Source: an uncultured Alphaproteobacteria bacterium (GTDB taxonomy: Bacteria > Pseudomonadota > Alphaproteobacteria > Rhodobacterales > Rhodobacteraceae). Taken from it: DNA of 64,000 bases. The position numbers were made by a program, and so were the translations under genes. The notes under the pieces were generated by a model, which searched no databases, was not told the DNA's origin, and worked only from the letters and a program-made list of their open reading frames with translations. Where the stretch lies: contig CAWCLQ010000020.1 in NCBI GenBank assembly GCA_963796445.1, forward strand, positions 55,455 through 119,454, given 5' to 3'. This document shows positions 1 through 17,773 of this stretch, piece by piece (positions within the stretch are counted from its first letter, which is position 1; each line of letters starts with the position of its first letter).

Positions 1-1
1 T

Positions 2-1248: not shown

Positions 1249-1700
1249 GTCTGTCGGTCAATGGCCATGAGGTGCAGGTTGTCTCTGACCCTGACACACC
1301 GCTGGCCTACGTGTTGCGGAATGAATTACAGCTCAAAGGCACGAAAATCGGCTGCGGGCTCGAACAATGCGGCGCCTGCACTGTTCTGGTGGAGGGGCAG
1401 GCCGTACAAAGCTGTGTCACCCCTGTTGCGGTCTTTGCAGATCAAGAGATCACGACTGTTGAGGGCCTGGCAGATACCGAAGACGGGCGCCGCGTTCAGG
1501 AAGCATTTAAATCGGCGCGTGCCGCCCAATGTGGCTATTGTACTGCCGGTCTTGTCGTCAAGGTCACCGCCTTGGCGCGTGCAAAAACGACCGCCGAACG
1601 GGACAGCCTGAAAGATGCTCTAACGGGCCACCTTTGCAGATGCGGTAGCCACCCAAGGGTTTTACAAGCCGCGGAGGCGGTTCTGGGACCCAAAACGTGA
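1224..1700 (+). CDS. (2Fe-2S)-binding small subunit of a molybdenum hydroxylase (IorA/CoxS-like)
   Basis: Cys clusters CGLEQCGACTV, QCGYCTAG and CRCGSH. The true start may be the GTG at 1242, overlapping the OsmC stop. Confidence 0.85.
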   Translation: MGESCAVLSLSVNGHEVQVVSDPDTPLAYVLRNELQLKGTKIGCGLEQCGACTVLVEGQAVQSCVTPVAVFADQEITTVEGLADTEDGRRVQEAFKSARAAQCGYCTAGLVVKVTALARAKTTAERDSLKDALTGHLCRCGSHPRVLQAAEAVLGPKT

Positions 1701-3814
1701 GCATCGACGCCTACACGCTTGTGACTGATTGGATCCGCGTGGAACGCGGGTGTTTGCTCTTGAGGACGGGCAAGGTCGACCTTGGGCAGCGTATTTCCAC
1801 CGCACTGGTCCGGATTGCGACCGAAGAGCTTTCGGTCCCAGTTGCCAATATTGACGTAGCCGCTGTGCGCACGGACCGCTCCCCGGATGAAGGGATCACA
1901 TCGGGTAGCAATTCAATCGAGCAGTCTGGTGCAGCGCAACGTCTGGCCTGCGCCACAGCCCGGGAATGGATGATGGCGCGGGCGGCAGAACAGCTTGAGG
2001 CGCAAACAGATGCGCTGGTTTTGGAAGACGGCAATATCACGCACCGTGCCACCAACAAGAAGATTGCTGTTCTTGATCTGCTGTCAGAACTGCCTGCTGA
2101 TTTGGCCATCGATCCAGCGGCGCCGGCGCGCGACCTCTCGGCACCTCTGGCTGACATGCTCCCGCGTGGTCTGGATGCTATGGTAACGGGGCGTTTTGTC
2201 TATGTGCATGATCTCGAAATGCCGGGGATGCTGCATGCGCGTATTGTTTGCCCGCCCAAGACTGATGCTGTCCTGAAAGAGGTGGATCAGGACGTCATTT
2301 CGCGGCTCTCGCAAAAGGGGATGTCTGTTGTGCGCGATGGCTCCTTTCTGGCCGTCGCGGGGCCAGATGAATGGTCCGTGGTGCGTGCGGCAACTGCATT
2401 GGGCAATGCTTGCGATTGGGACATCGGCGCAGGGCTGCCAACCGGCGATATATTCGACATTATGGCTGGCAAGGAAGCACAACGCTTTGCCGTTATAGAT
2501 GGTAAACCTGATCCGGCAGTAGATGTTCCGATGCAATTGGATGCGCCCGCCTATGCAGAGGTTTTCGAACGGCCATACACACTGCACGGGGCGCTTGGGC
2601 CGTCGGCCGCATTAGCAACTTTTTCAGGTGGAAAGCTGGAAATCCTGACCCATAGCCAAGGTATCTACTTTCTGCGCGACAGCATCGCCGACAGCCTGGG
2701 GATGGCGCCTGAGCACGTTGTGTTAGAGCATGTGCCGGGATCGGGGTGTTATGGGCACAATGCAGCGGACGATGCAGCTTTTGAAGCCGCACTTGTTGCC
2801 AAGGCACACCCTGACACGCCCATCCTGTTAAAGTATTCGCGGACGGACGAACATGGGCGCGAGCCTGTAAGCACGGCGATGGCGGTTAGGGTAGAAGCAC
2901 ACAAAAACGCAGCAGGGGACATTTCACATCTGTGGATGGAGACGCGCGGGGACACTCATCGCGGACGTCCCCGTGCAGGTGCCAACAGGGCTGGCCCAGC
3001 ACGCCTTGCTGCAAATGCCGCGCGCGATTGTGATGTGCCGCGATTTGTGCCCGAACCCAATATGAACCGACACGCTGGACTGCACCGAAACCTCGATCCG
3101 ATCTACCGGTTTTCAGAAAAGCGTCTGGTCAAAGCGTTGGTGCCCGATCTTCCTCTTAGACCCTCGGCACTGCGCTGTCTGGGTGCGCCAGCCAATGTGT
3201 TGGCAATCGAGAGCATGATGGATGAATGCGCATGCGCGGCCGGTCAGGACCCGATTGCCTACAGACTGCGTCATCTGGACGACCCCCGTGCCAGCGCAGT
3301 TCTAGAGAAACTGAGCGACATTCTGAAAGCGGCTGACCCATGCCCTGACGGGATGGGGCGCGGGATCGCCTATGCGCAGTATAAAAATGCAATGACCCGT
3401 GTGGCAGTCGCGGTGGATTTGGCTGTGGCAGACACAGGCGCAGTTCTGTTGAACCATGTGCGCCTTGTTGCCGACGCAGGCCGTGTTGTGGACCCTGATG
3501 GTCTGGCAGCCCAACTTGAGGGCGGCGTGCTGCAGGGGGCAAGCTGGGCGTTGTATGAGCAGGTCGTTTGGGGGCGTGACGGGCGCGAAAGTCTCGATTG
3601 GGACAGCTATCCGGTGCTGCGGTTTGACAACGTGCCAACCATTGACGTCACGATCATCGGGTCAGAGCACGAGCGGTCGGTCGGCGCGGGTGAAGCCAGC
3701 CCCGGACCCACAGTTGCTGCGATTGCAAATGGCGTTTATGCGGCTACCGGGTTGCGTTTGCGGCGCCTGCCATTCGATGCAGATGCGGTCCTGACGGCGG
3801 CTTTGCAGGCATAA
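1697..3814 (+). CDS. Molybdopterin-binding large subunit of an aldehyde oxidase/xanthine dehydrogenase-family oxidoreductase (IorB-like)
   Basis: 705 aa with a GTG start overlapping the small-subunit stop. Size, operon partner and conserved stretches (GSGCYGHNAADDAA, VGAGEASPGPT) fit the family. Confidence 0.75.
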   Translation: MSIDAYTLVTDWIRVERGCLLLRTGKVDLGQRISTALVRIATEELSVPVANIDVAAVRTDRSPDEGITSGSNSIEQSGAAQRLACATAREWMMARAAEQLEAQTDALVLEDGNITHRATNKKIAVLDLLSELPADLAIDPAAPARDLSAPLADMLPRGLDAMVTGRFVYVHDLEMPGMLHARIVCPPKTDAVLKEVDQDVISRLSQKGMSVVRDGSFLAVAGPDEWSVVRAATALGNACDWDIGAGLPTGDIFDIMAGKEAQRFAVIDGKPDPAVDVPMQLDAPAYAEVFERPYTLHGALGPSAALATFSGGKLEILTHSQGIYFLRDSIADSLGMAPEHVVLEHVPGSGCYGHNAADDAAFEAALVAKAHPDTPILLKYSRTDEHGREPVSTAMAVRVEAHKNAAGDISHLWMETRGDTHRGRPRAGANRAGPARLAANAARDCDVPRFVPEPNMNRHAGLHRNLDPIYRFSEKRLVKALVPDLPLRPSALRCLGAPANVLAIESMMDECACAAGQDPIAYRLRHLDDPRASAVLEKLSDILKAADPCPDGMGRGIAYAQYKNAMTRVAVAVDLAVADTGAVLLNHVRLVADAGRVVDPDGLAAQLEGGVLQGASWALYEQVVWGRDGRESLDWDSYPVLRFDNVPTIDVTIIGSEHERSVGAGEASPGPTVAAIANGVYAATGLRLRRLPFDADAVLTAALQA

Positions 3815-3933
3815 AGGCGCTCAAAACAGGCAATATGCCATTCAATATGGCAAAATGCGCAAGTCAAACTCGCTATTCATTCTTAAGTCATGTATGCTGC
3901 GCTGCAGAAAAACAGACTCAGAAAGAGTTTTAT

Positions 3934-4566
3934 ATGACTGGACGCATCATCACAGTCGCACAGCAAAAGGGCGGTTCCGGTAAAACAACCGTCACCGTTA
4001 ATCTGGCCACTGCGTTGCTGGCGCAAGGAAAATCGGTCGCACTTCTGGACACAGACCCGCAAGGCAGCTTGGGAAAATGGTTCATGAAACGGGTTGAAAC
4101 CTACGGCGATGACCCGAACCTGCGATTCTCAACAGCTACCGCATGGGGCATCAACTATGAGCTAAGGTCGCTTAGCTCTCAGGTGGATTTTGTGATCGTA
4201 GACACCCCGCCAAAAGCAGATAGCGACCTCAGGCCGGCCCTGCGCGCTGCCGATCTGGTGCTTGTGCCGCTTTCTGCCAGCCACGTCGATATTTGGGCTA
4301 CGCAAGATGTCCTTGATCTGGCAGACCGCGCAAGCAAGCGTGCCTGTATCGTGATGAACCGAACACGCTCGGGCACACGGCTCGGTGCTGAGGTCGTGCA
4401 GGCTGTGAGCGAACTTGAAGCGGACGTGCTGAAGACCAGCCTTGGAAACCGGATTTTATTTGCGGAATCCCTTGGGCAGGGGCTTGGTGCCATTGAAAGC
4501 CAGAAAAATAGTGTTGCCGCTGCCGAAGTCAGATCGCTTGTGGAAGAGGTTTCGCAGATACTTTAG
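3934..4566 (+). CDS. ParA/MinD-like P-loop ATPase (orphan, no ParB partner adjacent)
   Basis: Deviant Walker A (QQKGGSGKTTVTVNLA) and DTDPQGS motif. The internal ATG at 3934 fits family N-termini better than the ORF-track start at 3835. Confidence 0.85.
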   Translation: MTGRIITVAQQKGGSGKTTVTVNLATALLAQGKSVALLDTDPQGSLGKWFMKRVETYGDDPNLRFSTATAWGINYELRSLSSQVDFVIVDTPPKADSDLRPALRAADLVLVPLSASHVDIWATQDVLDLADRASKRACIVMNRTRSGTRLGAEVVQAVSELEADVLKTSLGNRILFAESLGQGLGAIESQKNSVAAAEVRSLVEEVSQIL

Positions 4567-4603
4567 CTTGATGAGCCCCGTGCTGAACAGGACCCGACAG
4601 GCT

Positions 4604-5380
4604 TCAGATGTCTGAAATCTGCCATGCGCTGATTGCTTTCAAGCCCTCTTCAATAGGACAGACCGAGGCAATTCCCAGCGTGTCCTTACAGGCGACGATA
4701 AGAACTTTATCCTCAGAAATCGGGATAGCGACACCTGTTGCATCTTGCGCTGCTTGGAATTTGGCGGTTTTGGAGCCTGAAAGTTCACCAGTCAATCGTT
4801 CAGCGTGAGATTGCAATAAGGGATGCCATGCCTCTGCGCCCGAAAATACGTGCTTGGCCGGATCGCTGCTCCACGTCATTTGCGCCAAAGCAGTTGCTTC
4901 CAGCAAATCTGCAAGATGCGCGATATCGCAAGGTCGGTCATCGATTACAAGCGCGCCGCGCAGCGCCGAGACAGAACAACTGTTTCCTGTATCGGAAATC
5001 TGTGACGGATCATCGATGGTCCGGGTTGTCAGTGCAGTTGCGCGTTTTGATAGCTCAAGTAGCTGTGCTGCGAAAACTCTGGCGTCTGCATCGGGTGCAA
5101 AAGACTGATCCTGTTTAGGGCTGGTGATCGCATATAAGCGGCGGCTCGACACAGTAAGAGTAGCCAGCGTTTCACCCTTGGCCGTCAGTTCAATGCGGCG
5201 CGGCAAAACCGTTTCGCTGATCTCGCGCAGCAGTACTTCCAATTGAGCACGGGGCGCTTCCGGCAGTGTTTGCCGCTCAGCGGCAAGCCATGCGGATTTT
5301 GTCGAAAACCTATGTAATACCTCTTTGAGGTTTACCGTTTCGCCTGTGCTTTCCTGAGATGATAAATTCGCTGATGTCAC
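4604..5380 (-). CDS. Hypothetical protein, last gene of the kinase-dynamin operon
   Basis: 258 aa with a GTG start. Start/stop overlap GTGA (5377-5380) with the upstream gene. I recognise no motif. Confidence 0.5.
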   Translation of the reverse strand: MTSANLSSQESTGETVNLKEVLHRFSTKSAWLAAERQTLPEAPRAQLEVLLREISETVLPRRIELTAKGETLATLTVSSRRLYAITSPKQDQSFAPDADARVFAAQLLELSKRATALTTRTIDDPSQISDTGNSCSVSALRGALVIDDRPCDIAHLADLLEATALAQMTWSSDPAKHVFSGAEAWHPLLQSHAERLTGELSGSKTAKFQAAQDATGVAIPISEDKVLIVACKDTLGIASVCPIEEGLKAISAWQISDI

Positions 5381-5760
5381 CTGCCGTTCTCCCCAATTTT
5401 GGACACGGTGTCACGGATTGTATGCAAGGCCTGTTCCACGTCCTGAGCGCTGTCGATCACGGCACAGGTCACGTCATCAGCCGCAAGATCAGGACGGCCA
5501 AATACAAAAGACTGCCCCGGCGTAAACATGATAGCTGTCTGGCCGTAGTGACCATTTTTGGTCAATTCTGCAGCGGTATCGCTATCGAGAATGGAAAAGC
5601 AGGTGACTGCCTTGGCGCAAAGGCTATCAAGCACTTCGCGCGGGCAATGTGCGGCAGAGCTTGAGCGTAAGATCAGCTTGGAGGATAAATCCCCAAATGC
5701 TGTTAGTTGACAGCCCGCTGTCTTTTGCCGAAGCGCGTCAAGATGTGTTTGTATCGTCAT
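5377..5760 (-). CDS. Putative roadblock/LC7 (MglB-like) domain protein
   Basis: 127 aa. The alternating alpha/beta hydrophobic pattern (LDALRQKTAGCQLTAFGDLSSKLILRS ... GQTAIMFTPGQSFVFGRP ... VTCAVIDSAQDVEQALHTIRDTV) resembles Robl_LC7. This assignment is by eye only. Confidence 0.4.
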   Translation of the reverse strand: MTIQTHLDALRQKTAGCQLTAFGDLSSKLILRSSSAAHCPREVLDSLCAKAVTCFSILDSDTAAELTKNGHYGQTAIMFTPGQSFVFGRPDLAADDVTCAVIDSAQDVEQALHTIRDTVSKIGENGR

Positions 5761-5782
5761 TCCAGGTACCTTTTAAACATAA

Positions 5783-5850
5783 TCGACACGGACAATTCTT
5801 CTTCGCGCGGTCGAGCAGTCCCGCGTAAAGTCGTCAATTGTCCGTGTCGA
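5783..5850 (-). promoter_or_regulatory. 15-bp perfect inverted repeat (TCGACACGGACAATT / AATTGTCCGTGTCGA) with a 38-nt spacer, in the only sizeable intergenic gap of the operon
   Basis: Arms at 5783-5797 and 5836-5850. The spacer contains a second small palindrome (CGCGG...CCGCG). Confidence 0.4.
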
Positions 5851-5866
5851 AACCTAAACAAAAAAT

Positions 5867-6760
5867 TTATCCTCCAAAGCCGGCGATATCTTGTGGAGCC
5901 GAGCGCCTGCGCACGTTCGTACCAGCACCGCTTGCCACACGGCGTGGCATGATGCGCGGCTCTGTTTCGGTCACTTCTTCAGGCTCGGGCATAACGGACG
6001 GGTGCCGTAGATCCTTGCCGTGCACCGGTGTGGGGGCAAAAGAGGTTTCCGCACTTGGCGCGTCATCGCCGCTCAACACACGGATTACATGTTCGGAAAA
6101 AGCAGCAACGCCGCTTTCTTGCCAAATCGTCTCGTCTTCGCCAGCGCGAAGGGCTGACAAAAGCGATACAGGGTAGATGGCATCAAACAGGCCTTCGGTT
6201 TCTTTCTCAACGCGTTTTCTGACACGCATCTTGTCACGATCATTCTGCAATTTGTCGAACTGCGTAATCAACAACAGGTTTGTGCCTGAACTTTGCGGGC
6301 GCAGGATGTTCCAAATCGCGGCTTCGGATTGACGCCATGCCTGGGTCGCATGGGTGCACCATATTACGCAGTCACGTGAGGAGATCACATTTTCCCACAT
6401 CTCCGGCGGCATGTTGGGATCTGAAATACCCGGCATATCCAAAATATCGCATAGCTCTAGCGCTTCGGCTTCCATATGCACTTCGATCATCGCGGTTTCG
6501 TCCATACAGACGTTTTCGAGACTGTCGAGAGCGATCGCCGTTTTGGTGCCGTCCAGACCAACAGCAAACGCGGCAGGCGCTCCATACGAAATCTGCACGG
6601 GCGGCAGACGCGTTGCGGTCACTTTCATCGGCAGGGGTTGGCTGTCGAGGATAATGTTCGTCAGCGTGCTTTTGCCCGCGCTGAATTCACCCATCAACAC
6701 CAGACGCGGCTTCACCGCTTCTTGAGGGGCTGTCTCCTCGATCATGTATTCGTCATCCAT
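5867..6760 (-). CDS. Dynamin-family small GTPase (297 aa)
   Basis: G1 GEFSAGKSTLTN, G3 DMPGISD, G4 TQFD. The start at 6760 gives an ATGGATGA overlap with the upstream stop at 6753; the ORF-track start at 6811 is less likely. Confidence 0.7.
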   Translation of the reverse strand: MDDEYMIEETAPQEAVKPRLVLMGEFSAGKSTLTNIILDSQPLPMKVTATRLPPVQISYGAPAAFAVGLDGTKTAIALDSLENVCMDETAMIEVHMEAEALELCDILDMPGISDPNMPPEMWENVISSRDCVIWCTHATQAWRQSEAAIWNILRPQSSGTNLLLITQFDKLQNDRDKMRVRKRVEKETEGLFDAIYPVSLLSALRAGEDETIWQESGVAAFSEHVIRVLSGDDAPSAETSFAPTPVHGKDLRHPSVMPEPEEVTETEPRIMPRRVASGAGTNVRRRSAPQDIAGFGG

Positions 6761-8849
6761 TGGGTTGTCCTTCCCATTTTGTCTCGGCTGAGTAGTGCTT
6801 GAGGTTGGCAATTACGCCGTCAATCTGCTCCAGCCTTTTGCTTTCTTCTTTTCCAAGGCAAATCCGCTGCAACCCATCGGCGTCACCGGTCGAACTGCTG
6901 ATCTCAATCATGATGTCGCGGTTCTGTTCAAAGAAGGCGTCCAGTGTTTCGGTCAATTGCTCTTGAATCTGAGATGTCTGAACGGTTTTGAGCTGGTTCA
7001 TGAAGTCTTCGGTCTCGGCTGAGACCAAATCATGAAACTGCTTGGCAAAGGCTTTGTATCCGCGCGTGCGGCGCCACCACGACACCCACCAGCTGTCATT
7101 GAAATCAAGCGCGATGGTTTGAGCAATTGTAACCGGTGCCGGAAATTCCTGCACTTCGGGCACATTAAGCTCGATGCCATCAACCGCAGTGCCGAACGCG
7201 TTATAGTATAGCTGGGCAATATCAACGACCGCGGTTTCATAGTGGTCCTTTGCAGAACGCTGTGCGCGGACTGCAAAGACTGAATAGGCAGATTTTAACA
7301 ACATCCGCAGACCCGTCGGGTCATAGCTCCAGACTTTGGTGTCGCCCTTGCTTTCAAGGTGCGTGATAAGCGAATGTGTGGCGCGTTCGATAAAGTTGAT
7401 GTGCGCGCGGTCGGCGCGTGCACGATAGCTTTGAATGATCTCGCCTGTTTTTTCCGCCAATTCGGCGCGGTGCCGTTCGGCCAGCTTTGTAAGCTCGCCG
7501 CGCACTTCGTGCATGCTCATCGTGAGTTGCTTATGATCGCCCTCAACGCGCACTTTGTTGGCGGCCTGCTGGCCGCTGGCAATGCTGATCGCCGAAGAGG
7601 CAATTCTGGTCAGCGTGGGATCGCCTAGCTTTTTGACGATCCGCTCGGAGATGCAGCGGTTAAGCTCGGGCATGCCAGACATATGCCAGATGATTTCTTC
7701 TGGTGGGCAGTCGCGTAACTGAACATCATCCTTTTCGTCAGCCCATTGCATCAGCGCATCTGTGCTGGCGCTGTGGATACTTTTTATGTCATCGGCGAGA
7801 ACCATATTCGCCCAATACGCACTGCCAAAAACGATCTGCGCATCCTCCGGACCTTTATGGTCGGCCAAGACCTGCCGGATGCTGTTTTCGATTTCCGGAA
7901 TCTGTACGGCCGGGTCGCTCAATTCGTCGATCCGGTTTACAAAGATAATGACATCTCTGGACTGCAAGCTCGATATCATGCGGATCAGTGCCATATCGAC
8001 TGACGTCAATGCTTGATGCGCTGACAGAACAACAACACATAGTTTGCTGGCGCGCACGGCGTTGATCGTCACCTGCTCGCGCATCATGAAGGTATCATTT
8101 ACGCCCGGCGTGTCGCGCAGGCACATCCGAAACGGTTTGCTGTTGCTGCACAAAAACAGATCGGCCGACCGGGTAATGTCGGCAAAACGCCCTTGATTTT
8201 CAACATCCGCCGGCGTCTCTTCTTCGTCATAGAAATCGTCACCGATGCAAATGTACCGTTCCAGCAGATTTTTGTCGAAGTACCCGTAGTCGTGCTCCTG
8301 TCCCAGCAAAAGCTCGAATTTACGGCCCAGACGTCGGCGGGATTTATCGCGCAGCGCCTCGATCTGCTCGCGGATGTTGTTGAGTTCGCTGTCTGAACCC
8401 GCGCGTCCGGCAAGTTCGCCCAAACGGCCGCCTTTTTGCACTAACCGGTCCCATTCGTCTTCTTCCATCATTTGGAAGCGTGCACTGATGTCTTTCTTCT
8501 CGGTGCCTGGGCTTAGGTGGAGCGAGGTGATGACCGATGTCCATGGATTTACATCCGCAGGCAACAGATCCGACCATCCCGCCATGGAATTTACGAGCGT
8601 TGTTTTGCCGGACTTTACCTGTCCCAGGAAAGTCACTGATGGCTCGAATGCGTCAAGTTCCTTGATAAGACGCGTGACGGCGCGTGACGCAGCAGCGCCG
8701 GTCAGCTCTTCGAGGGCGTCCAATGCATCCTCGACCATCTCGACCCGTTCGGCAAAAGCCTCAAGCGGTTCCAGCCCTGCCTTTAAAAATCTTGGCTGTG
8801 CAAGAACATCGGTCGGTTCATCATAGGGGATTTCTGTCTCAATATTCAT
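6753..8849 (-). CDS. Bacterial dynamin-like protein (BDLP, 698 aa)
   Basis: G1 GQVKSGKTTLVNSM, G3 DTPGVND, G4 NRID. A long helical C-terminal stalk carries a Trp-rich segment (SWWVSWWRR), a candidate membrane paddle. Confidence 0.8.
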   Translation of the reverse strand: MNIETEIPYDEPTDVLAQPRFLKAGLEPLEAFAERVEMVEDALDALEELTGAAASRAVTRLIKELDAFEPSVTFLGQVKSGKTTLVNSMAGWSDLLPADVNPWTSVITSLHLSPGTEKKDISARFQMMEEDEWDRLVQKGGRLGELAGRAGSDSELNNIREQIEALRDKSRRRLGRKFELLLGQEHDYGYFDKNLLERYICIGDDFYDEEETPADVENQGRFADITRSADLFLCSNSKPFRMCLRDTPGVNDTFMMREQVTINAVRASKLCVVVLSAHQALTSVDMALIRMISSLQSRDVIIFVNRIDELSDPAVQIPEIENSIRQVLADHKGPEDAQIVFGSAYWANMVLADDIKSIHSASTDALMQWADEKDDVQLRDCPPEEIIWHMSGMPELNRCISERIVKKLGDPTLTRIASSAISIASGQQAANKVRVEGDHKQLTMSMHEVRGELTKLAERHRAELAEKTGEIIQSYRARADRAHINFIERATHSLITHLESKGDTKVWSYDPTGLRMLLKSAYSVFAVRAQRSAKDHYETAVVDIAQLYYNAFGTAVDGIELNVPEVQEFPAPVTIAQTIALDFNDSWWVSWWRRTRGYKAFAKQFHDLVSAETEDFMNQLKTVQTSQIQEQLTETLDAFFEQNRDIMIEISSSTGDADGLQRICLGKEESKRLEQIDGVIANLKHYSAETKWEGQPNG

Positions 8850-8912
8850 ACTACTACCTGTTTATTTTTATAGCGCCCTGCTTTGACGCGGATGGGTTAC
8901 GGGCAATACGGG

Positions 8913-10127
8913 TCATGCGAAGGCCACCTCCGACATTTCCTTTTTGAGTTGCAACAAGGCACTGACCGCATCGCGTGCGGCTGTGTCTGTGCCTTCAAGT
9001 TGAAGCAACATGATGACTTGTTCACTTTCCAGTACATCTTCACGCATCGCGTTGATCTGCGCGTCGTCGCTGCGTGCATCCATCAACAAGGTGGCAAGCG
9101 CCTGGGCTGCTTGTGCAGAATGGGCCAGTAATTCCTTCGGTTGTGGAGCTGCTGCACTGGTCGAGACCATCTCATCTGCGCAATCCTGCAGAATGGTCAA
9201 AGCGGTATCCAGTGCCTCGTGGCGCTTCATCGGTTCGATGTCCGAAACCTCTTTGGCGACCGGTTCGGTTGTCGCAGCTTCGCTAACGTGCCTTGTCTCT
9301 TTTGGGTCTTTCGGGCTGACATGCGCCAAGAGCATCTGAACATAGTCCAAGTCTGCTTTGCGACCGGTATCTATGTGGTTCAGAACGCTGTCAAACAGCG
9401 CTTTGCCGCCGCTTGCCGCCCATCTGCCTTCGTCGATAGATTCACCGGAACGGGCAGCGATCGCCTGTTTCGTGGCGACAGGGAACAGCCCCAGAAATTC
9501 CTCTGCACAGTCTGCTTCAAACCGTTCGGTCAAAGCGCGCAAAGTGCCTTTCATCTGCAACTGGTCCGCTTTCGTCAGTGCTAGAAAGCTGTGGTCTTTC
9601 AGTTCTTCAGAAAACTGCGCCCACGTGGCTTGTTCACGGGCGTTAAAGTCCTGCGAGCACCAGATCGTGATATCCGTTGTCTCCATGGCCCAGTGCATAG
9701 CACGGGCTTGCATTTCCGGAGCGGCAGTCAAATTGACCTCAGCCAGTGCCATTTCGCCAAGCTCCGGCAGAGGCATTGTCTGGATCACACGGAAAACAGC
9801 AGCGGGTAAATCATGTTGGCTCGCACGGCCTTGATGCTCGGTTCCGATACCATTGTCGGTTTCATAGCGCACACTTTCGGATGTGCCATTGCGCAGTTCA
9901 AAGACAGTTACGCCAACCAGATCAGGCAGGTTTTCCGACCCAAGCATCATCCTCATCAGGCTGGACTTGCCGACGCCGGGATATCCGATAATGGTAACTT
10001 GGGTCGTCTTTTTCAGATGCGACAGCAACTTTTTCCCAACGTTCAAAAGCTCGCCGGTCAACTGCCGGTCCCCGACAGCCTCCTCAAGGCGCTGTATTGT
10101 ACTTTGAGAATCTGCAGTGCGTGTCAT
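8913..10127 (-). CDS. P-loop GTPase with a helical C-terminal domain (404 aa), dynamin/LeoA-like
   Basis: G1 GYPGVGKSSLMRMM, G4 TKAD. The start at 10127 gives an ATGA overlap with the PP2C stop at 10124. Confidence 0.65.
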   Translation of the reverse strand: MTRTADSQSTIQRLEEAVGDRQLTGELLNVGKKLLSHLKKTTQVTIIGYPGVGKSSLMRMMLGSENLPDLVGVTVFELRNGTSESVRYETDNGIGTEHQGRASQHDLPAAVFRVIQTMPLPELGEMALAEVNLTAAPEMQARAMHWAMETTDITIWCSQDFNAREQATWAQFSEELKDHSFLALTKADQLQMKGTLRALTERFEADCAEEFLGLFPVATKQAIAARSGESIDEGRWAASGGKALFDSVLNHIDTGRKADLDYVQMLLAHVSPKDPKETRHVSEAATTEPVAKEVSDIEPMKRHEALDTALTILQDCADEMVSTSAAAPQPKELLAHSAQAAQALATLLMDARSDDAQINAMREDVLESEQVIMLLQLEGTDTAARDAVSALLQLKKEMSEVAFA

Positions 10128-10993
10128 CTTTCTTGTCTCCGCAGTTCGTCTGGTTCGGGGCCAACATATCCGTTTGGTACAAACACCTCTTCTGTGCTCT
10201 TGGTCCGGTCGGCCACTTTCAGAATGCACAATGAAACGTTGTCTTGTTCTGGATCATCCAATTCGACGATGGATTGCAGCAACCTCGAGCCGATATCAGC
10301 GCTTGGCTGATTTCGTGTTTCAAATACGACGCGAGCGATTTCCTGTTCTCCGATGAATTGAAGGCCATCGCTGGCCGCAATCAGGATGTCGTTGTCACGC
10401 AATTCGATCGGCGTATCACGGCAGTCGATCTCTGGTATACTCTTGCCGATCAGGACAGATGTCAGACAGCTGCGATCGGGATGTTGCTGCGCATCTTCTT
10501 GCGCCATCTCGCCACGTGCGACCATCTTGTCCATGCGGCTGGCAAGAGAATGTTCTTCATTGAGACGGAACAGTCTGCTGCCGCGGAACAGGTAAAGAGG
10601 AGAGTCGCCGACAGAAACCCAGTATAGCCGGTTTCCAAAGATGACCGGAGCAACCAGTGTCGACCCCATACCATGCATCTGGGTCTGTTCTTCTGCTACA
10701 TCTCCGACGCATTTGTTAGCCTCAACGACGGCGCGCTTCAAAATCCCGCCGATGTTGTCTTCCATTTCGACCGGATCATCGGCCAACATTTTGAGTTCGC
10801 TAAAAATTTCCGTGACAACAATCTTGCTGGCGATCTCACCCGCAAGGTGTCCACCCATCCCATCGGCAAGCACGATAAACCCGATGTCAGCACCATCAGC
10901 AAAGTCGATGGCAACTGCATCTTCTTGCTGATCGCGCTGACCCACGCTGATCGCGGGCGCCGCGTCATAGTTGTATTTCACGGTCTCAGGCAT
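10124..10993 (-). CDS. PP2C-family Ser/Thr protein phosphatase
   Basis: Motifs RDQQEDA, LADGMGGHLAGE, AASDGL. The start at 10993 overlaps the FHA gene stop (ATGCCTGA, 10986-10993). Confidence 0.85.
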   Translation of the reverse strand: MPETVKYNYDAAPAISVGQRDQQEDAVAIDFADGADIGFIVLADGMGGHLAGEIASKIVVTEIFSELKMLADDPVEMEDNIGGILKRAVVEANKCVGDVAEEQTQMHGMGSTLVAPVIFGNRLYWVSVGDSPLYLFRGSRLFRLNEEHSLASRMDKMVARGEMAQEDAQQHPDRSCLTSVLIGKSIPEIDCRDTPIELRDNDILIAASDGLQFIGEQEIARVVFETRNQPSADIGSRLLQSIVELDDPEQDNVSLCILKVADRTKSTEEVFVPNGYVGPEPDELRRQER

Positions 10994-12128
10994 GTTTGGC
11001 GACCTGTTCTTCGGACTGTGTCCAGCTGAAATCATCCGCGCAGAATGCGATGAACCGCAAAGTTGTCTCACCAAGACGGATAAGGTCTTTGTCTTTAAGC
11101 TCTTCGGTGCTGAGCAACGGAATATTGTTGACGCGTACCATGTTTGTCTTGCCGCTGTGGCCGATGAAGAACTTGTTCTGCTCTGAATCGAACGCGATCG
11201 AGACATGGTTGTCGCGCGAGATACTATTGTCACCAAAGTTCAGACAGACAGTCTGATCCGTGCCGCGTCCAACGCATGTCACACCGTCTTGAAGAGCAAA
11301 TGAAGCGCCGCGTCCCATTTCCGAGACGACGACCAGCCAGCCTACAGGGAAACTGCTGCCGGAGCTGGATTTCTTCTCGAATGGGTCGTTGCGTTCGATT
11401 GCGCCTGCTGAAAATCCGAGCAGACGTGTCTTCACCCGACCTGATCGACCTGATCCGCGCCCTTTTGCAGGCGATGGCATTTGCATCGGCGCGTCCATTG
11501 CGTCTGCCAAGGGTGTCATCGTGTCAAAAGGTTCTTCTGTGGCGACGGGCTCTGGCTCGGCGGCTTCGACGGGCTCTGGTTCAACTGGCTTTTTGACTGC
11601 TGAATGTGCGACGCTACGCATCGGGCTGACAGTTTTCGATGCTACTGGCTCTGCTTGCAGTGTTTCCCGCAGTTTGTCGAATGGGTCTGGCATATTCAGG
11701 TAGTCTTCGATGTCGTCGCCCGCTGGCTCATCTTCTATTTGGTTTTCTTCGACAAAGTCGTGCTTGGCGTTGGACTTAGCAGCATCTTTACTATCGCCCA
11801 TTGTCGCGGCGACACTGGCAAGGCGTTCGCGGTCGATGGAATCGAGCAATGACTGAACTTCGTCATCGTCGTCGTCATAATCTTCATAGGCGGCAAGCTC
11901 GTCGTCGTCGCTGGCGGTGCTTTTCGCCATGAATGCCTCTTGGGTATCGAGAGGGGGAGGTGTTTCCCCGAGCGGGTTCTGGCGCGCTTCGTCTGCATCA
12001 TCGAATGTCGGTGAATTCAACACGAGCGGTTCTACCGGTGCATCTAGCGCCGTACCTGCTTCGGTGCCATTTGGATCAATGGGCCTGCTGGCGCGTTTCT
12101 CTTTGATGATGTCGCGAATAAATCTCAT
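10986..12128 (-). CDS. FHA domain protein with a long acidic low-complexity N-terminus
   Basis: C-terminal FHA core CVGRGTDQTVCL...SISRDNHVSIAF...GKTNMVRVNN...LGETTLRF. The N-terminal ~270 aa are D/E/P/A-rich. Confidence 0.85.
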   Translation of the reverse strand: MRFIRDIIKEKRASRPIDPNGTEAGTALDAPVEPLVLNSPTFDDADEARQNPLGETPPPLDTQEAFMAKSTASDDDELAAYEDYDDDDDEVQSLLDSIDRERLASVAATMGDSKDAAKSNAKHDFVEENQIEDEPAGDDIEDYLNMPDPFDKLRETLQAEPVASKTVSPMRSVAHSAVKKPVEPEPVEAAEPEPVATEEPFDTMTPLADAMDAPMQMPSPAKGRGSGRSGRVKTRLLGFSAGAIERNDPFEKKSSSGSSFPVGWLVVVSEMGRGASFALQDGVTCVGRGTDQTVCLNFGDNSISRDNHVSIAFDSEQNKFFIGHSGKTNMVRVNNIPLLSTEELKDKDLIRLGETTLRFIAFCADDFSWTQSEEQVAKHA

Positions 12129-12139
12129 CTGGTGTCTCC

Positions 12140-13441
12140 TCAGGAATTTGACGGGGCACTATCAGCGCCATGATTTCTAGAAAAACAACGGTGTATTAGC
12201 CGCGAGATCAGTTTCCCCGCGCGCCCGGTTGTTGGATTGATTTGGTCGGAGTTGGAGGTGGATCCGCTCGAGGCGGAAGCGCGCCGTTCAATTTCTGTTT
12301 CTTGATCGCGTTGCCAGCGGTCGAAGTCGTTGATCGGATTGCCAAAAATGTCTACCAACGGTTTCTTTTCTGGTGGTGCATCCTTCTTGACCCGCGTTCG
12401 GTTTCGTACAGTCAGCTCGCCGCCTGTACCGTTACCGCCCATCTGGGTGTTTGTGATCTCTACGATCCGGGCGATTTCGTTTTCCAGGTTAGGATCAAAC
12501 CTGACCATTGCGCGTGGAAGAGGATGCTTCTTCGGCTGCGCTTCGAGGTCTTCAAGCCATTGTGCTGCTGACTGGTAACGGTTGCGCTGCCGCATTTTCA
12601 GCGCACGGTCGATTGTTACCAAAATATTGTAGTCAAAAGGCCATTCGCCCTCGACAAGCGGTTTATAGGGATCGGCTTTACCGCCGGTCAACGCTTTTAG
12701 ACGTGCCAAACTGTCGGGCGGAGGAGTGCCCGTCACAAGGTAGTGGAATGTGGCCCCGAGCGCGTAGAAATCGCTGGCAAAGTCATGTTTGCTTTTGGGA
12801 GTGTAGAATTCGTAGGGCGAATACCCGTCTTTTACGGCGAACATAGCAGGGCGCGACTGATCCGCGTGCTCTTTTGAGGCTCCAAAATCAATCAGAGTTA
12901 CGTGACCGTTGTCGTCGATCATGATGTTGTCGGGGGACACGTCACGATGTAGCACGTGATTTTGGTGGATAAAGCCAATTGCGGTCAAGCATTGCTGTAG
13001 AGCACTGTGCAAGCAGTCTTTAGTAAGCAGCTCTGGCCGTTCTTCAGAGACGGTCACGAAATCCATGCCGTTGATCTTGTCCAACGCCATGTATGCAGTG
13101 TTGTTTTCTTCAAATACTTGATGCACGGCGACAATGCCGGGGTGAACCAGTTTAGCGAGTTGCCGTGCCTCACGGATAAATTGCGATTTGATGGCGTGAA
13201 AATCCCCGGCGGCCTTCTCCGATGCAGGATAGACCTTTGTTCCTTTGCGGGTGCACAGTCCTGAGGGGAAACACTCTTTGACAACCACTTGCCGTGCCAG
13301 ACTGTCGCGCGCAATGTAGGTCACGCCGAAACCGCCGCTGCGTAGCCTTGACTGAATCAGAAACTGACCGTTCAGAAGCTCTGTTCCGACGGTTAAATCC
13401 TCTGCGTCAGCGAAGTTATTTCCCGCTAGCATATGGTTCAC
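12140..13441 (-). CDS. Hanks-type Ser/Thr protein kinase (cytoplasmic, no TM segment seen)
   Basis: GGFGVTY glycine loop, VVVKE lysine, HRDVSPDNIMI catalytic loop, DFGASK, SPYE. There is an 11-nt gap with a GAGGAG Shine-Dalgarno before the FHA gene. Confidence 0.9.
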   Translation of the reverse strand: MNHMLAGNNFADAEDLTVGTELLNGQFLIQSRLRSGGFGVTYIARDSLARQVVVKECFPSGLCTRKGTKVYPASEKAAGDFHAIKSQFIREARQLAKLVHPGIVAVHQVFEENNTAYMALDKINGMDFVTVSEERPELLTKDCLHSALQQCLTAIGFIHQNHVLHRDVSPDNIMIDDNGHVTLIDFGASKEHADQSRPAMFAVKDGYSPYEFYTPKSKHDFASDFYALGATFHYLVTGTPPPDSLARLKALTGGKADPYKPLVEGEWPFDYNILVTIDRALKMRQRNRYQSAAQWLEDLEAQPKKHPLPRAMVRFDPNLENEIARIVEITNTQMGGNGTGGELTVRNRTRVKKDAPPEKKPLVDIFGNPINDFDRWQRDQETEIERRASASSGSTSNSDQINPTTGRAGKLISRLIHRCFSRNHGADSAPSNS

Positions 13442-13782
13442 TGGTCTCGTCCGATTGCCAAGGTTGCGTTCTGGACAGAAAATCTGCCTTTTAATTCATT
13501 TTTAATATTCTTCTCAGAATGTGCGGATAAAAAGGCAGTCGTTTGTCAGCGATGTGTTGTTTGCATCTGGTAAAAACAGTGTTTCCAACCTGTTTGACCG
13601 TCAGAGATTTTCTGACGGCAGACCGCATTTCCAAAGAGGTGGAATGACAAAAAAATCCCGCAAGGTCTTGTAAAACAGAACTATACGCAGCCTGCATATA
13701 TTCTATGCGTTGCACAATTCATGGTGCTACCAGAAACGTGTGGGTACCCGCGGCACCCGTTCATTTGCGATGGCAAAGGATG

Positions 13783-16167
13783 CTAGTCGAGCAAGCCCCG
13801 CAGTGCCGCGCCTAGGTCATTCAGGCTGTAAGGCTTACGCAGAACGGGGTGGCGTTTGCTATCCTCCACCCTACCGATTTCAGCACCGCTTGCATACCCG
13901 GTAGCAAGTAGGATCTTAAGCGCCGGGTTGATCTGAAGCGCCTCATCCGCCACATCAAACCCGGTCATTCCTCCCGGCATCACCACATCGGAAAGCACAA
14001 GATTGATCTCAGTGTTGCTGCGCAGAATTGCCAACGCGGCAGGTCCGTTTTCAGCCGCCAGTGTTTTGTAGCCTAGATTTTCCAACCGGGTTACTGTCAA
14101 CCGCTGGACACGCGCATCATCTTCGACAACCAGAATGGTTTCGTTTCGAGATGGTGGAATACCGTTCTCAGTGGGTGGCTCTGTATCTGGTTGGTCTGTT
14201 GGGGAGGGCGGCAGATACAACGTGACTGTGGTGCCCACGCCTTCCTCGCTATAGATTGCGACATGGCCGCCCGATTGCTTGGCGAATCCATAGACCATGC
14301 TGAGGCCGAGGCCAGACCCCGCGCCAACACCTTTGGTCGTGAAAAATGGCTCGAATGCGTGCGCAATTACGTCGCCAGACATGCCAAGCCCGGTATCGGT
14401 GACGGACAACGCGGCATAGGCACCCGGCTCGACATCCACTTGGGTCGCAGCATAGTCTGCATCGAGAACGACGTTTCTTGTTTCAATCGTAAGAGAGCCA
14501 CCTTCGGGCATCGCATCGCGCGCGTTAATGGCGAGGTTCAGAATGGCGTTTTCGACCTGACCGGGGTCGGTTAGCGTCTGCTTCAGATCATCTGCAAGAC
14601 TGGTATCGACAAATATGTCATCGCCAAGCGTCCGGATCAAAAGCGGTGTGATCGACAGCACAAGTTCGTTCAACGAGATAACGGTGGGATCAAGCGCCTG
14701 TTTGCGAGAAAAGGCCAGCAGTTGCGTGGTCAGTTTTGCGCCAAGATCTGAAGCTTCCAGCGCTTCGGTCAACAGCTCTTTCTTCGGAAACTCACCAAGC
14801 TGCATTTCAAGCAGTTCCAGATTGCCGATAATCACCGTAAGCAGGTTGTTGAAGTCATGCGCCAACCCGCCGGTAAGCTGACCAACTGCCTCCATCTTTT
14901 GTGCGCGCTGCAACGCGTCGCGGCTTTTCATATCCTCCGTCAGATCATGTATGATTCCGGTGAAATTGCGTTCACCGTCTATCCACCATTCGGCAACGGT
15001 CAACCTGATCGGCACATCCGATCCATCCTTGTGGCGCGCGCTCATCTCGCGCCCGATGCCGATGATCCTTTTCTCGCCAGTTTCAATGTAGCGTGACATG
15101 TAATCGTCATGCTTTTCTTGATGTGGTGCAGGCATCAACATTTTCACATTCTGGCCCACCACCTCGTCTGATCTAAAACCAAGAATAGTCTTTGCCGCAG
15201 GGCTGTAACTGGTCACAACGCCAGTTTCGTTAATCGTGATAATCGCCTCGGGGGCCGCATCAAGAATGGCACTGAGCCGCGCTTCGCGGTCTTTCAACCC
15301 ATGCGCTATTTCGATCTGGTCGGTGACATCTTCCAAGGCAAGCAGAATGAATTTACTGCCGTGGCTATCGTCTAGTACGGCGCGGGCGTTCACCAGCATT
15401 GACCGGGTGTCTTCATTGCCCAGGTCGACAGTGATCTCGTGATCTTTGACAATGGTTTTATCGGGCAAGATTTTTTCCAGAAGGTTACGGAACGCAGACT
15501 GGGCCCACTGGCCGTCTTGCAACTCATATAGCGCCTTGCCTTCGGTATCTTCGGGTGTTGTCCGAAAGGTTGTCAGAAAGGACCGGCTGGCCTTGACCAC
15601 GTGCAGATCCTTGTTCAGCACCAGCATCGGTTCGCGCACTGTGCCGACAATGGCTTCTGCAAACTTTTGCGCCACCTGCGAGGCTTGTTCCAGCACTTTC
15701 AACTCGGTCACATCAGAGAAGGTAATGACCACACCTTCGATTTTCCTATCCTGTGTTTGGTAGGGCAAGATGCGTCGGATAAACCATTTGTTGTCTTCCG
15801 CCTGCACTTGCGCCTCGATCGGCTTTAAATTCTCCAGAACCGACGCCGCATCCGCAAGCAAAGCGGGGTCACAAATTTTCCCGGTGATGTCGCTGAAGGG
15901 CCGGCCCACATCTTTTGCGACTACATTGAACAAATCGCGGGTGGATGGGGTGAACCGCATGATCTGCAAATCGCGGTCCAGAAATAAAGTGGCGATCCCG
16001 GAACTCGATAGTAGGTTGTTCAGATCGTCGGTTAGACGGCGTTCGTCTTCGATCTTTTGTTGAAGTTGAATGTTAAGCGTTGTCAGCTTTTCGTTCAGCG
16101 AGTGCAGTTCTTCCTTGGATGTCTCCAGCTGCTCATTGGTCGATTGGAATTCTTCGTTCATCGACAT
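13783..16167 (-). CDS. Hybrid sensor histidine kinase/response regulator (PAS-PAS-HisKA-HATPase-REC), the intact 3' remnant ORF of the decayed megagene
   Basis: 794 aa. NEELxS coiled-coil linker at the N-terminus, H-box GGLAHDFNNLLTVI, G-boxes DTGLGM / GSGLGLS, C-terminal receiver (ILVVEDD ... LSDVVMPGG ... LRKP). Confidence 0.75.
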   Translation of the reverse strand: MSMNEEFQSTNEQLETSKEELHSLNEKLTTLNIQLQQKIEDERRLTDDLNNLLSSSGIATLFLDRDLQIMRFTPSTRDLFNVVAKDVGRPFSDITGKICDPALLADAASVLENLKPIEAQVQAEDNKWFIRRILPYQTQDRKIEGVVITFSDVTELKVLEQASQVAQKFAEAIVGTVREPMLVLNKDLHVVKASRSFLTTFRTTPEDTEGKALYELQDGQWAQSAFRNLLEKILPDKTIVKDHEITVDLGNEDTRSMLVNARAVLDDSHGSKFILLALEDVTDQIEIAHGLKDREARLSAILDAAPEAIITINETGVVTSYSPAAKTILGFRSDEVVGQNVKMLMPAPHQEKHDDYMSRYIETGEKRIIGIGREMSARHKDGSDVPIRLTVAEWWIDGERNFTGIIHDLTEDMKSRDALQRAQKMEAVGQLTGGLAHDFNNLLTVIIGNLELLEMQLGEFPKKELLTEALEASDLGAKLTTQLLAFSRKQALDPTVISLNELVLSITPLLIRTLGDDIFVDTSLADDLKQTLTDPGQVENAILNLAINARDAMPEGGSLTIETRNVVLDADYAATQVDVEPGAYAALSVTDTGLGMSGDVIAHAFEPFFTTKGVGAGSGLGLSMVYGFAKQSGGHVAIYSEEGVGTTVTLYLPPSPTDQPDTEPPTENGIPPSRNETILVVEDDARVQRLTVTRLENLGYKTLAAENGPAALAILRSNTEINLVLSDVVMPGGMTGFDVADEALQINPALKILLATGYASGAEIGRVEDSKRHPVLRKPYSLNDLGAALRGLLD

Positions 16168-17773
16168 CGCCTCTTGGTTCGCTGCCTTTAATACCTCGGT
16201 CGAGCGTTCGCATCCCCGAATGGTATTTTGTAACTCATGGCGCGTGGTGTCCAGCTATTGTTCCAGTGGTGAGCGCTGTCTTTGGCATCTGCGTCAGAGA
16301 CGGTGTCTGCTTTGTTGACCGGTTAATCGACAAAGGTGACAAGAACCAGTTTTACCCCGTCCACTTCCATCGCGGAGGCGCCTATTGTGACGGGTACGCT
16401 GCCAACCCAAGAAACAGCAAACCGTCATCATTCAGTGCAAAGTGGAACATCTGGATGACCCGTTCCTGCGCCTCAGCGTTCAGGTAAATCAACAGATTCC
16501 GGCACAAAATCAGGTCGCGTTTCGACAACGGCGCATCGGCCAGAATATTCTGGTTGTCAAAGACGACGGCATCGCGCAATTCTGGTTTGACGCGATAAGA
16601 ATGGTCTTCCTCGTCGAAAAAACGTCTGAGCCGTTCGGATGATAGATCGCCTACAATGGCGTCGGGATACACACCGGCACGTACTATTGCCAAGGCTTGT
16701 TCGGCCACATTGGATGCAAAAACCGGATTTTGACGCGTTTGCGCAAAGTCTGAATTTTTTCAATTAACAGCATTGCCAGTGAATAAGCTTCCTCTCCGGT
16801 GGCACAGGCAGGTACCCAGATGCGGATCGGCTGACCTGATGCACAATTCAGAACCAGATCGCGAATGACATGATCGGCCAGATAGGTGAACGCTTCTGCG
16901 TCACGGAAAAACGATATCACGCAGATCAGCAAGTCTGCGCACAGCTTTTCTGCCCCATCGGGTGAATCCCTAAGTAAGCTCATGTAATCGGTTGAACTTT
17001 CCATGTGGCGCAGGGCCATGCGCCGTTCTGTCCGGCGCAGTAGCGTGCCTTCTTGTAGTACTCAAAGTTGATTGGGGTGTGCGCTTTGAGGACTGCGATG
17101 ATCTGGGGCAACGCGCCACGCGCATTGTCACCTCAAACCTTTATGGTGCGTCCCTGCGCGATAAACGGATGTGCCGTGTAGTCGGGCAATGCCCTTGGGC
17201 ATTTTTGCGACCGGCAAAATATGATCGACCGCTCCTGACGAATTCGTGCTGCGGGGCATTCCGTCGTGTGCGGCTTCCTTGGGGTCCTGCACCAGAATTA
17301 TACCACCACTTTTCTTGACGCTGCGTATTCCTGCTGTGCCATCCCCACCTGTCCCAGGTAGAATGACGGCAACCGCATTCTCCGCCGTTCCGTAGGTTCG
17401 GTGAGGCGTCGCGCACCCTTTTCGATGCTAAAAAAGCGTTTGGCGGAATGATATAGACATGATCCGGCGCGATTGGCGTGCCCTCTTGTGCCAATGCGAC
17501 GGTCATTTTGGAATGTTTCGCAAGAAGATCGGCCATCAGGTTTTTATGATCGGGATCAACGTGATGGATTGCGACGAAGGCCATGCCGGTCTTATCGGGC
17601 AACGCTTCAAAGAAATCCGTAAACGCCTGCACTCCACCGGCAGAGGCACCAAGACCAACCACAGGGATTTTGGCCGAAACCGTGTTGGTCTCGGATATCT
17701 TCGCTTTCGTCGTGGGTTCTGACGGCGTTTTCGCAGACGCCTCTGTAGATGGCTTCTTAGCCTGTCGTGCCAT
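13783..17773 (-). pseudogene. CheB-CheR-PAS-histidine kinase-REC multidomain gene, broken by multiple frameshifts in its 5' 1.6 kb
   Basis: CheB GLGASAGGVQAF (ORF 17141-17773) continues as AVAVILPGTGGDGTAGIRSVKKSGGIILVQDP in another frame. CheR motifs: KKGTLLRRTERRMAL / FFRDAEAF / IRIWVPACATGEEAYSLAMLL (16684-17019) and LILCRNLLIYLN (16382-16708). There are at least four frame changes. Confidence 0.75.

Follow-up and report, generated by a model that had tools for sequence, protein, structure and literature searches.

A conserved gene cassette of Rhodobacterales combines dynamin-type GTPases with predicted Roadblock-fold proteins and a Ser/Thr kinase, FHA and PP2C gene set

We analyzed a 64,000-nt stretch of alphaproteobacterial DNA (contig CAWCLQ010000020.1, positions 55,455-119,454, forward strand), called here the window, whose own positions are used as coordinates. 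It contains a cassette of eight open reading frames (ORFs), all on the minus strand and spanning 4604-13441, which encode in this order a Ser/Thr kinase, an FHA protein, a PP2C phosphatase, a 404-aa GTPase (GTPa), a 698-aa dynamin-like protein (DLP), a 297-aa GTPase (GTPc) and two proteins of 127 and 258 aa (p127 and p258). Every component can be assigned to a known family. The way in which they are wired together, and especially the association of Roadblock-fold proteins with dynamin-type GTPases, appears to be undescribed. The gene content, the folds, the conservation of the motifs and the co-inheritance of the genes form the established part of this work. From them we infer, with moderate confidence, that the cassette encodes a self-contained cytoplasmic machine for membrane remodeling, probably acting at the membrane, that would be gated by phosphothreonine and regulated by Roadblock proteins; its contacts, its membrane activity and its role all belong to this proposal.

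Table 1. Features of the cassette region, in window positions
Feature	Length	Position	Strand	Match or remark
Soluble Hanks-type Ser/Thr kinase	433 aa	12140..13441	-	Pkinase 4.8e-30 (Pfam)
FHA protein	380 aa	10986..12128	-	FHA 2.6e-6 (Pfam); FHA domain aa ~285-353
PP2C-type Ser/Thr phosphatase	289 aa	10124..10993	-	PP2C_2 1e-9 (Pfam)
GTPa	404 aa	8913..10127	-	Dynamin-type G domain with degenerate G3, variable linker, conserved C-terminal helical segment
Full-length bacterial dynamin-like protein (DLP)	698 aa	6753..8849	-	Dynamin_N 4.4e-12 (Pfam)
GTPc, short dynamin-type GTPase	297 aa	5867..6760	-	Dynamin_N 7.3e-10 (Pfam)
Inverted repeat, perfect	15 bp	5783-5850 (arms 5783-5797, 5836-5850)	-	Within the 106-nt GTPc-p127 gap; long RNA hairpin
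p127, predicted Roadblock/LC7-fold protein	127 aa	5377..5760	-	AF2 model pLDDT 84.6, pTM 0.79
p258	258 aa	4604..5380	-	AF2 model pLDDT 74, pTM 0.50; motifs LLxEIDETVLPR, VSNRRL
Upstream intergenic region, presumed promoter		13442..13782	-	Holds TTAA-N7-TTAA at 13491-13505

A first-pass annotation of the window had listed the eight ORFs, with four overlaps and 11 nt separating the kinase gene from the FHA gene, and had read them as one coupled unit. All these junctions are present in the sequence. The 11-nt gap is accompanied by a GGAG located 5′ of the FHA ATG. The FHA and PP2C genes overlap in ATGCCTGA (10986-10993), where the ATG of PP2C lies within the stop region of the FHA gene, and the PP2C and GTPa genes overlap in ATGA (10124-10127). 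The DLP and GTPc genes share ATGGATGA (6753-6760), and the p127 and p258 genes share GTGA (5377-5380). However, two junctions are uncoupled, a gap of 63 nt between GTPa and DLP and a gap of 106 nt between GTPc and p127. The cassette is therefore made of three translationally coupled blocks (4 + 2 + 2 genes) and not of one unbroken chain.

The conservation of the cassette as a unit was then evaluated. More than 2,000 homologues of the DLP exist in the protein collection, and all the named ones among the top 120 are from Rhodobacterales. Relatives were found on at least 553 stretches of the species-representative genome collection, from which the best 80 were fetched; all but one of these 80 are titled Rhodobacterales or unclassified Pseudomonadota or bacterial metagenome-assembled genomes (MAGs), the single exception being a 1.8-kb fragment in a bin labelled Mycobacterium. 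Five genes (kinase, PP2C, GTPa, DLP and GTPc) were tracked by tblastn, and among the 80 fetched stretches 65 loci had enough flank to be informative. The five genes were collinear on one strand in 65/65 of these loci, and the FHA gene was located between the kinase and PP2C genes wherever tblastn found it. The p127 and p258 genes evolve fast, yet they are in position in nearly all loci, usually with a mutual overlap of 4 nt. A 4-nt overlap was also observed between PP2C and GTPa (48/76 loci) and between DLP and GTPc (34/78 loci), and the gap between GTPa and DLP has a median of 118 nt in the relatives. The presence of the same gene set in dozens of genomes shows that the arrangement is not due to chance. 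Furthermore, the flanks of the cassette vary from genome to genome, and a protein-mode plasmid search found it plasmid-borne in Leisingera; a megablast of the whole cassette against plasmids gave zero matches. The cassette is a self-contained, relocatable module, so far an uncharacterised accessory module of Roseobacter-group bacteria, a group that is ecologically important in the sea.

Several relatives carry the genes in other arrangements. On a plasmid of Leisingera sp. S132 (locus L084) the gene set is divided between two convergent operons. The first contains the DLP and GTPc genes followed by genes of 121 and 262 aa, and the second contains the kinase gene, two genes annotated as encoding transporter substrate-binding domains, and the FHA, PP2C and GTPa genes; the 439-aa gene of this plasmid corresponds to GTPa (hhalign probability 100%). 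On a plasmid of Ruegeria sp. AD91A (L083/L085), four dynamin genes flank homologues of the Roadblock gene (96.6%) and of p258 (93.5%), and these are followed by the kinase, FHA and PP2C genes, with two further genes whose products are annotated as transporter substrate-binding-domain proteins. The Ruegeria kinase bears the same HRDISPDN signature and, in addition, a transmembrane (TM)-like segment with about 300 residues C-terminal to it. This organization suggests a receptor form of the kinase, and such versions would respond to signals from outside the cytoplasm. Two other genes, the first one of the Ruegeria cluster (140 aa) and a 136-aa gene of another locus (L087), were considered as Roadblock homologues and rejected.

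Two further loci, L088 (7313-13709) and L090 (3767-10545), encode a Roadblock homologue (97.7% and 97.6%, respectively), a DLP, and then a short Dynamin_N protein, which in L088 matches GTPc at 99.9%. Each of them also encodes a phosphatase of the protein tyrosine phosphatase type (or dual-specificity type) near the DLP genes, and no kinase, FHA or PP2C gene was called within the fetched stretch of either locus. The assignment of the 326-aa and 406-aa proteins of L090 as homologues of p258 and GTPa was not supported (hhalign 8% and 29%), and both are positional analogues only. In Rhodobacter sp. CZR27, four dynamins adjoin a histidine kinase and a UbiB-type kinase. The same DLP family also includes bare or doubled pairs of a DLP and a short DLP. 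As judged from these gene sets, the DLP/short-DLP pair is the common core. The window has an elaborated form of it, to which putative Roadblock regulators, a further G protein of degenerate type and one of the alternative phospho-signaling gene sets, of which there are several, have been added. The variant architectures are the strongest evidence for a functional link between the signaling and the dynamin genes, because the kinase/FHA/PP2C triad remains associated with the DLPs in the rearranged Leisingera and Ruegeria versions. The co-travel of this triad with the GTPases, which the first-pass annotation had raised as a question, is thus observed both in the 65 informative loci and after rearrangement.

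The three GTPases were next compared with dynamin-type proteins of known structure. Motif conservation was scored over 68-77 orthologues depending on the gene, and the motifs that had been quoted in the first-pass annotation were all found in the sequence and conserved across the orthologues. The family profile of the DLP matches the bacterial DLP (BDLP) of Nostoc (2j68, 5e-8) and a chain of the Campylobacter jejuni DLP structure (5owv_A, 8e-8). Its G domain holds a large conserved insert, and the G1 motif, NPWTS, DTPGVND and NRIDE are near-invariant across 77 orthologues. Near-invariant too is a Trp-rich basic motif, D[SG]WWxSWWRRTRGYKAF, at aa 585-601. It is located near where the Nostoc BDLP has its lipid-binding paddle and is a candidate membrane contact. 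GTPc consists of a G domain and a variable basic tail with a conserved PRRV; GEFSAGKST, TATRLPP, DMPGISD and TxxDK are conserved, and its family profile matches another Campylobacter chain, 5owv_C (E 1e-16, positions 17-228).

For GTPa, Pfam covers the P-loop only. When 37 orthologues were combined in a family profile, the match extended over the whole G domain of 5owv_C (E 1.4e-6, positions 33-220), and comparison by hhalign identifies GTPa as a paralogue of GTPc (99.8%, E 8e-29, 206 columns). GTPa retains the G1 (GxxxxGK[ST]) and G4 (LTxAD) motifs, but DxxG (G3, switch II) is lost: in the hhalign alignment, DMPGISD of GTPc stands opposite EVNLTAA of GTPa (DMPG versus EVNL). Because the P-loop and G4 are present but DxxG is absent, GTPa is likely to hydrolyze GTP slowly or not at all, which would make it a regulatory pseudo- or slow GTPase. 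A Dynamin_N G domain with intact G1, G3 and G4 is thus carried by the DLP and GTPc and only partly by GTPa. These comparisons place all three proteins in the dynamin-type G-domain family at the level of sequence profiles, as had been proposed in the first-pass annotation, except that GTPa has no DxxG.

The fold of p127 and p258 was assigned from structure models, because these alone resolved the two proteins while the sequence searches remained blank. No sequence-level match was obtained for either protein with Pfam, NCBIfam and PADLOC, with Pfam over 37 orthologues, or with a family profile against PDB sequences. The AF2 model of p127 shows the strand-and-helix order of Roadblock proteins, and its top Foldseek matches are all Roadblock/LC7, MglB, MglC or LAMTOR proteins (E ~1e-6, probability 1.0, TM-score ~0.7), including 3kye, MglB (3t1s, 1j3w and 3t12) and MglC (7ct3). 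The model thus predicts a Roadblock/LC7 fold like that of MglB, and the earlier description of this protein as roadblock-like was well founded despite the missing Pfam match. In contrast, p258 had been left as an orphan. Its model matches Mon1-Ccz1 over its length in Foldseek (E 5e-4), and the single-domain matches are LAMTOR, the C-terminal domain of Rag, MglC and MglB (probability ~1.0). The C-terminal half of the model has the canonical Roadblock helix/strand order. We propose that p258 contains one, probably two, Roadblock/longin-like domains. The window comes from a Roseobacter-group bacterium, and its p258 has an identical counterpart in a Roseobacter sp. MAG.

The identity of the signaling triad rests on clear domain matches (Table 1), and the absence of a TM-like segment in the kinase, noted in the first-pass annotation, was verified. 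No such segment was detected in any of the eight products, the top 19-residue hydropathy being 1.58. An alternative start of the kinase is the ATG at 13432. Across 73 orthologues the kinase keeps GGFG, VV[IV]KE, HRD and DFG. Its catalytic loop (aa 165-172, window 12926-12949) reads HRD[IVL][SA]PDN in every motif variant listed for these orthologues; the Lys of the canonical HRDxKxxN is thus replaced by Ser or Ala throughout the family. RIO and Bud32 kinases have Ser or Thr at the position of this Lys and are nevertheless active. Activity of the cassette kinase despite the absent Lys is plausible and is assumed here.

The FHA protein has a variable, acidic and disordered N-terminus, with 54 D+E against 19 K+R in residues 1-220, which agrees with the acidic N-terminus reported by the first-pass annotation. 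The phosphothreonine-binding positions of the FHA domain (GR, SxxH and N) are conserved in the orthologues. Between the variable N-terminus and the FHA domain, the sequence RVKTRLLGF (aa 231-239, window 11412-11438) is identical in 57/68 orthologues. Thr234 within this sequence is a candidate for phosphorylation or for an auto-regulatory pseudo-ligand. The PP2C protein conserves the metal-binding motifs DGMGGH, GDS, SDG and DN and gave an NCBIfam match to the Stp1/IreP-type model (9e-43), under the cutoff of that model. The triad genes thus encode the catalytic and phosphothreonine-binding residues, with the deviation of the kinase loop from HRDxKxxN.

These features can be combined in a model of how the cassette might work. 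The DLP/GTPc pair would be the engine and would probably act on the inner membrane; the pair occurs bare or duplicated elsewhere in Rhodobacterales and resembles Campylobacter DLP1/DLP2 and LeoA/LeoBC. G domains of the dynamin superfamily are activated by nucleotide-dependent dimerisation, and the G domains of the cassette would be activated in the same way. GTPa, as a non- or slow-hydrolyzing partner, would cap or prime a catalytic G domain. MglB, MglC, Ragulator and Mon1-Ccz1 serve small GTPases as GTPase-activating proteins (GAP), guanine nucleotide exchange factors (GEF) or scaffolds. Likewise, p127 and p258 may together provide a platform for one or more G domains, whose nucleotide state they would control as GAP, GEF or scaffold. 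The kinase would phosphorylate a Thr on a component of the cassette, the candidates being the Thr of RVKTRLLGF in the FHA protein and the tails of the GTPases. The FHA domain would read the phospho-Thr mark, so that the complex is assembled or released, and the PP2C phosphatase would reset the mark, as in PpkA/Fha1/PppA of the Pseudomonas H1 type VI secretion system (H1-T6SS). The output would be a GTP-driven remodeling, repair, fusion or fission of the inner membrane.

Several points weigh against this model. The kinase is devoid of the catalytic-loop Lys of canonical Hanks kinases, hence its activity is an assumption, and the kinase of the window has no recognisable sensor domain. Membrane binding is indicated solely by the conserved Trp-rich motif, with a TM segment in 0/8 proteins. 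The model of p258 is of moderate confidence only (pTM 0.50), and we know of no precedent for Roadblock proteins that regulate dynamin-type rather than Ras-like GTPases. Finally, the 106-nt gap with its hairpin could transcriptionally separate genes 7 and 8 in this genome.

We also considered a function of the cassette in phage defence or abortive infection similar to that of Eleos (formerly 'Dynamins', LeoA + LeoBC), in which the kinase would sense infection and the dynamins would protect or sacrifice the membrane. The likeness lies in the consecutive dynamin-like genes and in a weak profile similarity: with PADLOC the DLP matches LeoA (2.3e-9) and LeoBC (1.1e-8), and matches to the kinase models of PD-T4-6 and MADS were obtained for the kinase. 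The accessory character of the cassette, with variable flanks, a plasmid location in Leisingera and differing signaling genes, is usual for conflict systems. Moreover, a two-dynamin operon shields Bacillus from jumbo phages, and DynA delays lysis (bioRxiv 10.1101/2022.05.11.491447). However, the scores are low (33-35 bits) and reflect a dynamin-family similarity at most. The DLP aligns with LeoA at 34.9 bits over positions 107-335 of 559, short of the full-length profile, and with LeoBC at 32.7 bits, while GTPc matches both profiles through the P-loop only (E 4e-4 and 0.014); the kinase matches reflect a generic kinase domain. The context is also different. The published Eleos operon stands beside known defence systems in 60% of cases (bioRxiv 10.1101/2022.05.11.491447), which was not seen here: 0/10 flanking proteins of the window gave a PADLOC match, and across 70 loci the recurrent neighbours are genes for quorum sensing, two-component systems, transporters and LysR proteins and not for defence. 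No relative was found in a scan of viral contigs, and the cassette encodes no nuclease, protease, TIR or other classical effector. It further differs from Eleos by six extra conserved genes and by its distribution, since Eleos is spread across many phyla (bioRxiv 10.1101/2022.05.11.491447) whereas the cassette has so far been found only in Rhodobacterales-like genomes, other groups being sparsely sampled. A defence function is therefore unlikely in our view, and the phage-surveillance version of the first-pass annotation finds no contextual support.

The predicted Roadblock proteins raise another possibility, that of a spatial or polarity switch like MglA/MglB, in which the GTPases and Roadblock proteins would position some other machine (division, budding, flagellum or holdfast) and be tuned by Thr phosphorylation. 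The nearest structural matches of the two Roadblock-fold proteins are MglB and MglC, GTPa resembles a switch-type, hydrolysis-impaired G protein, and a ParA/MipZ-like ATPase gene adjoins the cassette in the window. As in MglA/MglB(/MglC), Ragulator and Mon1-Ccz1, a protein with the MglB/LC7 fold and a Roadblock/longin-like protein are predicted beside GTPase genes. But the likeness to these systems does not extend to the sequence level, and the GTPases of the cassette are of the Dynamin_N type and not Ras-like proteins such as MglA, Rag or Rab; none of the three gave a Ras-family match. The ParA/MipZ-like neighbour is unconserved in other loci, no motility, division or polarity genes are found among the recurrent neighbours, and both the length and the Trp-rich motif of the DLP are as one would expect for a membrane-active BDLP. 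Taken together, these observations make a polarity switch quite improbable. That two unrelated units merely adjoin, the kinase, FHA and PP2C regulating something else, would accord with the 63-nt GTPa-DLP gap (median 118 nt in relatives) and with the existence of bare DLP pairs without any kinase, but this reading is close to refuted by the collinearity of the five tracked genes in 65/65 loci despite unrelated flanks, by the triad staying beside the DLP genes after inversion or reshuffling in Leisingera and Ruegeria, and by the overlap of GTPa, a GTPc paralogue, with the PP2C stop codon, which ties a dynamin-type gene to the triad block.

To place the proposed membrane-remodeling machine among known systems, we compared it with tandem DLP pairs, namely C. 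jejuni DLP1/DLP2 (5owv), Nostoc BDLP (2j68) and LeoA/LeoB/LeoC of enterotoxigenic Escherichia coli. As in these, a full-length DLP gene of the cassette has a second, different dynamin-type gene directly after it, and the profiles of the cassette match exactly these structures, 2j68 and 5owv_A for the DLP and 5owv_C for GTPc and GTPa. As in LeoABC, one partner is reduced to little beyond the G domain. The cassette differs in having three dynamin-type genes, one without G3 and two of only 297 and 404 aa without a full stalk, and it adds two predicted Roadblock-fold proteins and the kinase/FHA/PP2C set, none of which is reported there.

The PpkA/Fha1/PppA proteins constitute the threonine-phosphorylation pathway of the Pseudomonas aeruginosa H1-T6SS. 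There too the genes of a Hanks kinase, an FHA adaptor and a PP2C phosphatase accompany those of the machine that the three proteins presumably gate. In the cassette, however, the machine is a dynamin set, and the kinase of the window is soluble, without a periplasmic domain and without the canonical Lys. No T6SS core family was found among the cassette products or the flanking proteins scanned. The Streptomyces conservons (CvnA-D) comprise a histidine kinase, a Roadblock protein, a DUF742 protein and a small GTPase. They share with the cassette an operon of a signaling kinase, a Roadblock protein, a second small partner and a GTPase, whereas the cassette has a Ser/Thr kinase with FHA and PP2C proteins, and dynamin-type GTPases. 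Pfam at E <= 0.1 revealed no further family, DUF742 included, in any cassette product.

Neither PADLOC nor NCBIfam holds a model for the cassette, and no such cluster is described in the full-text literature that was searched, a scope outside which most subscription-journal papers fall. The first-pass annotation had suspected that no catalogued system has this wiring, and this view stands, the weak partial LeoA/LeoBC matches of PADLOC being the only ones. The results that might have overturned its reading all went the other way: the GTPases fall in the dynamin-type fold family, their orthologues are syntenic with the triad genes, and the architecture is not catalogued under a name.

Bacterial dynamin-like proteins are widespread, and how they are switched on is largely unknown; to our knowledge, no dedicated regulator has been described for the bacterial DLP systems. 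The cassette sets a candidate GAP/GEF platform, a candidate pseudo-GTPase and a full phosphothreonine switch beside a DLP pair. We put forward tentatively that it could be the first prokaryotic system in which Roadblock/longin-type platforms control GTPases of the dynamin superfamily instead of Ras-like GTPases, under a Ser/Thr phospho-switch. If so, remodeling GTPases, a pseudo-GTPase, Roadblock regulators and a kinase/FHA/phosphatase set, a combination otherwise associated with eukaryotic membrane traffic, would be united in an alphaproteobacterial lineage. The range of partners known for the Roadblock fold would then extend beyond Ras-like GTPases. The bare pairs, the doubled pairs and the pairs with different signaling genes provide natural comparison sets for the regulation of bacterial dynamins.

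The non-coding parts of the region were analyzed as well. The inverted repeat of the GTPc-p127 gap (Table 1) folds into an RNA hairpin with a dG of -40.6 kcal/mol (z = -4.0), and 0/200 shuffled sequences were equally stable. Neither the window nor any of the 86 fetched loci contains a second copy, which rules out a repeated element. No T-run follows the hairpin, which could serve to stabilise or attenuate the transcript in this particular genome. A repeat search of the region revealed nothing besides this single hairpin, an Rfam scan of the cassette region gave zero matches, and over 4300-14000 neither the sigma-70 promoter scan nor the terminator scan gave signals that exceeded the shuffled expectation. 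The TTAA-N7-TTAA of the presumed promoter has the form of a CtrA box; it lies ~50 nt upstream of the kinase start and is the sole such box in the window. As a family feature it was rejected, since it occurs upstream of the kinase gene in 1/70 orthologous loci.

The neighbouring genes of the window (those for the ParA/MipZ-like protein, a PAS histidine kinase, a CheB-like protein and a Lon-like protease) were rejected as conserved partners, being unconserved in other loci. Directly upstream of the cassette and on the same strand, the region 13783-17773 encodes a 794-aa hybrid histidine kinase with three PAS-type domains, HisKA/HATPase and a receiver; farther upstream in this region is a 210-aa ORF whose CheB methylesterase domain is limited to the first half. 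At 19580-22827 an 822-aa Lon-like protease (LonC/LonB-type, AAA_32 + Lon_C) is encoded, whose gene shares a 4-nt overlap with a downstream ORF of 260 aa, for which neither Pfam nor PADLOC gave a match. Across the relatives, about 22/70 loci (including L001, L007, L010-L014, L017, L020, L023, L032, L036, L038 and L059) have one to three of the following genes adjoining the cassette, on either side and in varying order: a LuxI-type autoinducer synthase, a ~380-aa response-regulator protein, a CHASE5 histidine kinase and a cytochrome P450. These neighbours could reflect a link with quorum sensing or a co-travelling accessory locus. Over 1-13500 of the window, the G+C content of the cassette is about 0.53-0.54, against 0.56-0.58 in the left flank, which is mildly consistent with an acquired accessory module.

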